DNA of 402 bases from Escherichia coli (lineage in GTDB: Bacteria > Pseudomonadota > Gammaproteobacteria > Enterobacterales > Enterobacteriaceae). A model generated the notes under the pieces. That model did not search any database. It was not told where the DNA came from and saw nothing but the letters and a program-made list of their open reading frames with translations. Position 1 is the stretch's first letter, and every line of letters begins with the position of its first letter. Below, one piece after another: positions 1-402 of this stretch. The stretch lies in the NCBI RefSeq assembly GCF_003334335.1, contig NZ_QOWQ01000198.1; one strand, given 5' to 3'. Made by a program: the position numbers and the translations under genes.

Positions 1-402
1 AATGGCTTTAAGCTGTTCCGCGAAAAACTGGATACCCGTCGCGGCTCAAATTCACAACTCGAAACGGCAGTGAAAGACCTGGGGTCGGTGGTGTCTTTCA
101 AGGGGTATTACGGTGATCTGGCCATTGTGGTGGCGAAAACGTCTTATGTGGCAGAGGACGGTACCGAAAAACGTTATCTGCCGGAGGGCACGCTGGTCCT
201 GGGAAATACGGCTGCTGAGGGCATCCGTTGCTATGGTGCCATTCAGGATGCGCAGGCGTTGTCCGAAGGTGTGGTGGCCTCTTCCCGTTATCCGAAACAC
301 TGGATGACCGTGGGCGATCCGGCCCGTGAATTCACCATGACGCAGTCCGCTCCGCTGATGGTGCTGCCGGATCCGGATGAGTTTGTGGTGGTACAGGTGA
401 AA
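1..402 (+). CDS. Phage major capsid protein, lambda gpE-like (Phage_cap_E family); internal fragment, truncated at both window edges, covering roughly the last 134 residues before the C-terminus
   Basis: Seen in sequence: frame 1 on the + strand is open across all 402 bases (134 codons, no stop), which is why it is absent from the ORF track that lists only bounded ORFs. Codon usage is enterobacterial in style (ctg, ccg, gcg, cgt, gaa and aaa preferred). Established knowledge (from recollection, not a search): the translation aligns co-linearly with the C-terminal region of bacteriophage lambda major capsid protein E, sharing blocks such as EKLDTRRGSNS-LETAVKDLG, KG-YGD-AIVV, LVLGNT, YG-IQDA, RYPK-W-T-GDPAREFTM-QSAPLM and PDEF-VQ. 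Inference: lambda gpE ends a few residues after the PDEFVSVQLA-like motif, so the stop codon probably lies just beyond base 402. Confidence 0.9.

Follow-up and report, generated by a model that had tools for sequence, protein, structure and literature searches.

The 3' end of a phage 21-type major capsid gene in Escherichia coli and its C-terminal tail

INTRODUCTION

The major capsid protein of phage lambda, gpE, is known from several atomic models (PDB 7vi9, 7sj5 and 8k39). In lambda the N-terminus of the decoration protein gpD joins the E-loop of one gpE and the N-arm of a neighbouring gpE in a sheet of four strands (PMC5701804); the C-terminal tail of gpE goes unmentioned in that account of gpD binding, and our literature search on the gpE C-terminus in atomic models found nothing specific. 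Phage 21 (genus Jouyvirus; GenBank M81255) encodes the corresponding capsid protein gp7 (AAA32346.1), with shp upstream of the capsid gene and a homologue of FI downstream. Shp is able to bind lambda capsids, yielding particles of varying stability, according to a review citing Wendt and Feiss 2004 (PMC7602432). A further relative of solved structure is a putative capsid protein from a prophage of E. coli CFT073 (PDB 3bqw).

Here we analyse a stretch of 402 nucleotides of E. coli DNA, referred to throughout as the window. A preliminary description of its sequence had placed the probable end of a gpE-like gene just beyond the last base and had called the C-terminal tail a variant of that of lambda. 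In our reading, to which we assign a probability of about 0.96, the window is the 3' 402 bases, stop codon excluded, of the major capsid gene of a lambdoid phage or prophage in E. coli. The gene is one of the phage 21 lineage of head genes, of the gp7 type, and its product is an HK97-fold shell subunit homologous to lambda gpE over its full length.

RESULTS

The window ends at the last sense codon of a capsid gene

Translation of the window showed that frame 1 of the + strand is open across all 134 codons, without a stop between bases 1 and 402, while the other five frames hold short ORFs only. The final 13 codons, at bases 364-402, encode LPDPDEFVVVQVK, so that the preliminary description was right both about the tail and about the frame being open at base 402. 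The features of the window are as follows.

1..402, + strand: the final 134 sense codons (209-342) of the gene for a 342-aa major capsid protein of phage 21 type, similar to lambda gpE (HK97 fold, Pfam Phage_cap_E); assigned from the PhiR5_1 CDS match, the Pfam match and the PDB lambda gpE match
364..402, + strand: C-terminal tail LPDPDEFVVVQVK, protein residues 330-342, from the translation; the same as the tail of phage 21 gp7
385..396, + strand: codons V337-V338-V339-Q340, predicted final beta-strand, from DSSP on the AlphaFold2 model and family conservation
400..402, + strand: AAA, which encodes K342 as the last sense codon; the next three bases, outside the window, are the TAA stop

The whole window is 100% identical to positions 32492-32893 of Escherichia phage PhiR5_1 (PV340545.1), which fall within a CDS (31868-32896) annotated as 'major capsid protein E'. 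Six complete E. coli chromosomes also carry it at 100% identity, in prophages where the annotation is major capsid protein, and other phages, phage 21 included, are 91-98% identical to it. The presence of the identical gene in an isolated phage suggests that its product, which as a gpE-type protein would assemble into a T=7 icosahedral shell, is functional.

At the gene end the DNA of PhiR5_1 reads ...GTG AAA TAA (AAATAA at positions 4400-4405 of locus L001), and TAA stands directly 3' of base 402 in PhiR5_1, E. coli EC2 and phage 21 alike. The annotated capsid CDS ends at position 4405 in L001, 3405 in L002 and 2405 in L003. Since TAA comes next in the records that match at 100% identity, the last sense codon closes with base 402, and the protein ends in K134 of the window. 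A comparison by script gave the same result: without its stop codon, the gene has the window as its final 402 bases. The PhiR5_1, EC2 and phage 21 genes each encode a 342-aa protein that ends in MVLPDPDEFVVVQVK followed by the stop, from a gene of 1029 nt, without a C-terminal extension. The stop codon had been expected within a few codons downstream, and in the matching records it is the very next triplet rather than lying beyond tens of further open codons; the protein, at 342 aa against 341 aa for lambda gpE, is of gpE length, as had been proposed.

To cover the junction with the next gene, we used a 131-base probe running from the end of the capsid gene across its stop and the intergenic region into the start of the next gene. 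This probe was at least 95% identical in 1,494 of the 1,555 matching E. coli records. Among the gene-end matches listed, every one is annotated with 'major capsid protein' and then 'gpFI', that is, with separate capsid and FI genes.

The product belongs to the gpE family

The similarity to lambda gpE that had been noticed is far beyond chance. The window translation matches residues 210-340 of 341 in the PDB lambda gpE chains at E = 7.8e-55, and it matches Pfam PF03864 (Phage_cap_E) at E = 3.1e-25 over model positions 200-329 of 329, with the alignment reaching the last model position at window residue 133. The same Pfam family is precomputed for all of the homologues listed. Further support comes from PHROG major head protein families (E = 1e-187 to 1e-127) and from PDB 7vi9, which is matched over residues 1-341 at E = 5e-134. 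The lambda gpE sequence used as a query was itself checked and is 100% identical to phage Lambda records. No NCBIfam family matched either the full protein or the window at E <= 0.001, which is a gap in the NCBIfam library and not evidence against capsid identity; the assignment to the family accordingly draws on Pfam, PHROGs and the PDB sequence and fold matches.

We built an AlphaFold2 model of the full protein on a 46-sequence family alignment (pTM 0.74). Residues 52-69 and 220-245 are loops of low confidence, and the tail is modelled confidently. A Foldseek search of the PDB with this model returned the crystal structure of lambda gpE (7sj5; TM 0.88, E = 3e-42) and 3bqw (TM 0.86) as best matches, with the YSD1 and Chi capsid proteins also among the top ones. 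The protein is thus predicted to adopt an HK97-type fold. Every defining feature of the Phage_cap_E/gpE family that we tested is present, namely the HMM match, full-length homology, the predicted fold and the gene context. The features that define the gp7 sub-lineage of phage 21 are all present as well: the protein has the same length and tail as gp7 and is nearly identical to it, and its partner is of the Shp type.

Divergence from the phage 21 gene is mostly synonymous

Compared with the phage 21 gene, the codon differences are 55 synonymous to 13 non-synonymous in the whole gene; of these, the window accounts for 26 and 7 and the tail for 2 and 0, respectively. By this pattern of substitution the capsid gene is under purifying selection, and so is no decaying pseudogene. 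Identity is not uniform along the gene. At the nucleotide level L001 (3377-4405) and phage 21 (L003, 1377-2405) share ~98% identity in the first ~270 nt and in the final 39 nt of the gene, and 88-96% between those ends; the gene is a mild mosaic of the kind typical of lambdoid recombination.

The tail is a short predicted strand with a variable last residue

The preliminary description had the lambda protein ending in VQLA. This is correct, the end of lambda gpE being PDEFVSVQLA and the lambda locus translating to MLLADPDEFVSVQLA followed by the stop. The lambda tail LADPDEFVSVQLA differs from that of the window at 4 of 13 positions (A/P, S/V, L/V and A/K, lambda/window), and to that extent the tail is indeed a variant; it is, however, exactly the tail of phage 21 gp7, which belongs to a known sister lineage, and not a new one.

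Among the best 120 database homologues, all that retain the C-terminus end exactly 6 residues past the PDxF motif, and in the full-length relatives sampled these residues follow the pattern V-x-V-x-[V/L/I]-x. F336 and V337 are the same in all sequences of the family alignment (46/46 each), position 339 is V or I only and position 341 is V, L or I only. The intervening positions are permissive: position 338 varies among V, S, I and T, within the 342-aa lineage too, and position 340 among T, Q, K, M, E, H and N. Least conserved is the terminal residue 342 (A 22, K 9, G 7, S 5, Q 2, N 1; n = 46).

An alternating pattern of this kind is expected of a beta-strand with one buried face. DSSP assigns residues 337-340 (VVVQ) of the AlphaFold2 model to a strand (E), and the last residue blocks of the model have a mean pLDDT of ~91. 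The aliphatic residues V337, V339 and V341 would be buried, and the terminal K342 would make no specific contacts. The last six residues of the tail may be pictured as a short beta-strand of alternating buried aliphatics, followed by a free and variable K342. All four differences from lambda (P/A, V/S, V/L and K/A) fall on permissive positions or exchange one aliphatic residue for another. On our reading they are conservative substitutions between long-separated capsid lineages and no functional innovation.

Gene neighbourhood, downstream hairpin and prevalence

In the annotations of PhiR5_1 and E. coli EC2 the gene order is portal, S49 protease/Nu3, decoration, capsid, FI, FII, Z, U, V, G, T and H, which is the canonical lambdoid head-tail module. 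The decoration protein encoded upstream (115 aa) shares 93% identity with phage 21 Shp and 58% with lambda gpD.

Beginning 8 nt past the capsid stop and ahead of the FI ribosome-binding site there is a GC-rich hairpin with a T-run (GCGGGGGCGAAATGCCCCCGT plus GTCTTTTTTC). It occupies positions 4413-4443 of L001, outside the window and 10-40 nt past base 402. Lambda has a hairpin of unrelated sequence (ATGGCCCTTCGGGGCCAT plus TGTTTCTCT) in the same position (L004, 1629-1655). RNA folding gave -22 kcal/mol for the hairpin of the window lineage and -16 kcal/mol for that of lambda, both with z of about -2. An Rfam scan of the gene and the downstream hairpin found no family that covers the hairpin, and the single Rfam match, to a snoRNA model elsewhere in the region, was discarded as a sub-threshold chance hit (E = 0.11). 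A promoter and terminator scan found 3 terminator-like sites where 1.5 are expected in shuffled sequence; such sites are about as frequent as in shuffled sequence, and hence the scan alone does not establish a function for the hairpin. The hairpin follows the most highly expressed of the head genes, where it could act in mRNA stabilisation or attenuation, and a functional role could lie in setting the ratio of capsid to FI expression.

We also asked how common the gene end is, using window positions 1-402 and the lambda counterpart (L004, 1225-1626) as queries against complete E. coli genomes. The 21-type capsid gene end is present in 1,565 of 5,426 genomes (~29%), with up to 5 copies each, and the lambda-type end in 3,213 of the 5,426.

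Capsid-FI fusions on other contigs

Metagenome and Logan contigs contain capsid-FI fusions of 441-467 aa with at least 3 different junctions. They include P0005 (L005, 1207-2550) and P0100 (L006, 1731-3056), as well as P0105 and P0110. In each of them an internal deletion has taken out the capsid stop, the hairpin and the FI start, and in L006 the junction lies at an 8-nt microhomology, AACTGGCG. These contigs are probably defective prophage variants. A different arrangement is seen in P0101 (470 aa, Logan-derived), in which gpD (PF02924) and gpE (PF03864) domains occur in one protein, suggesting a decoration-capsid read-through or fusion, or else a sequencing or assembly error.

DISCUSSION

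The preliminary description of this window was correct, but what it found is ordinary. The protein and its tail were already known from the phage 21 head operon deposited as GenBank M81255, and we found nothing new in them. Where it had left the choice between a functional difference in the tail and neutral drift, the evidence favours conservative divergence between lineages, and the suggested role in decoration-protein binding found no support, the literature placing gpD binding on the E-loop and N-arm. We also considered recognition of the tail by a defence system. In the Avs8A preprint lambda gpE acts as a trigger; recognition there is at the level of the HK97 fold and the tail is not mentioned, and we rejected this candidate.

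Had the frame run on past base 402, the window would encode part of an extended or fused capsid protein, for example an E-FI fusion, and proteins in which capsid and FI are joined do exist in the database: P0005 (447 aa), P0100 and P0105 (441 aa) and P0110 (467 aa). These fusions, however, are on other contigs and arose through internal deletions that removed the stop codon and the FI start. At the DNA level they depart from the window at the tail or within it, L005 after ...GAGTTTGTGG, and P0005 has VVQVK replaced, whereas the window still encodes it. TAA follows base 402 in every identical or near-identical record examined, and ~1,500 E. coli records retain the junction, with capsid and FI separate among the matches listed. 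The TAA directly after base 402 refutes an extension or fusion of this sequence, and we give that reading practically no weight. We regard it as very improbable, too, that the window is a decaying capsid pseudogene of a defective prophage, in which relaxed constraint has altered the tail. Most of the matches are prophages in E. coli chromosomes, and truncated or frameshifted copies are found in the database (entries of 231-317 aa, for example), as such a reading would have it; yet the identical sequence is carried by the isolated phage PhiR5_1, whose named propagation host is E. coli C, the ORF is intact at canonical length, synonymous differences from phage 21 outnumber non-synonymous ones by ~4:1, and the tail keeps all invariant residues of the family.

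It is also unlikely, in our view, that the tail differences from lambda (P331/A, V338/S, V341/L and K342/A) are adaptive, whether through capsomer contacts or through a match to Shp as opposed to gpD. The published contacts of gpD are with the E-loop and the adjacent N-arm and not with the C-terminal tail (PMC5701804). The substituted positions vary freely in the family, with six residues found at 342 and V, S, I or T at 338; tail length and the aliphatic pattern are unchanged; and the V/L and V/S exchanges are conservative or lie at alternating, presumably exposed, strand positions. On the other side, the decoration gene that accompanies the capsid gene is of the Shp type (93% identity to phage 21 Shp against 58% to gpD), and Shp on lambda capsids gives particles of varying stability (PMC7602432), so some lineage-specific differences on the capsid surface do matter; nothing points to the tail among them. 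As a speculation that we rate as having a small chance, P331, V338 and K342 might evolve together with the Shp-type decoration protein or in step with contacts between capsomers and, separately, the hairpin past the stop might be a functional mRNA element. If such co-evolution of the tail were true, swapping the tails of 21 and lambda would alter capsid stability.

A 21-type capsid gene whose tail has diverged conservatively from that of lambda is the reading that we prefer, and none of our results spoke against it. Its significance is slight, since this is a canonical and well-characterised type of capsid gene with close homologues of solved structure. The fixed six-residue tail after PDxF, with its variable last residue, is relevant to C-terminal tagging or display on gpE-like proteins.

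Among known systems, phage 21 is the nearest. Its gp7 has the same length (342 aa) and 96% identity (329/342, no gaps) to the protein described here. Of the 13 amino acid differences 7 lie in the window and none in the tail, and the last 13 residues of gp7, LPDPDEFVVVQVK, are identical. Given this degree of identity to gp7 and the identical last 13 residues, VQVK is the standard tail of the phage 21 lineage. The TAA stop and the hairpin that follows it are shared with phage 21 too, as are the flanking genes, shp upstream and the FI homologue downstream. Lambda gpE (341 aa) is more distant but homologous end to end, with 61% identity (208/341, E = 6e-155) and one internal gap, YV-ENG in lambda against YVAEDG in the window protein. 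The difference between 342 and 341 aa is due to this internal one-residue insertion at YVAEDG and not to the C-terminus, where the architecture is the same (PDEF, six residues, stop), as is the gene order; the decoration partner differs, lambda gpE being partnered with gpD and the window lineage with a Shp type. The prophage protein 3bqw has the same family and fold (E = 8e-94, TM 0.86) at ~46% sequence identity in the fold search. It carries ADIRKF in place of the PDPDEF motif and, like the window protein, ends one residue past an F-V-x-V-x-I strand, in its case FVTVKI.
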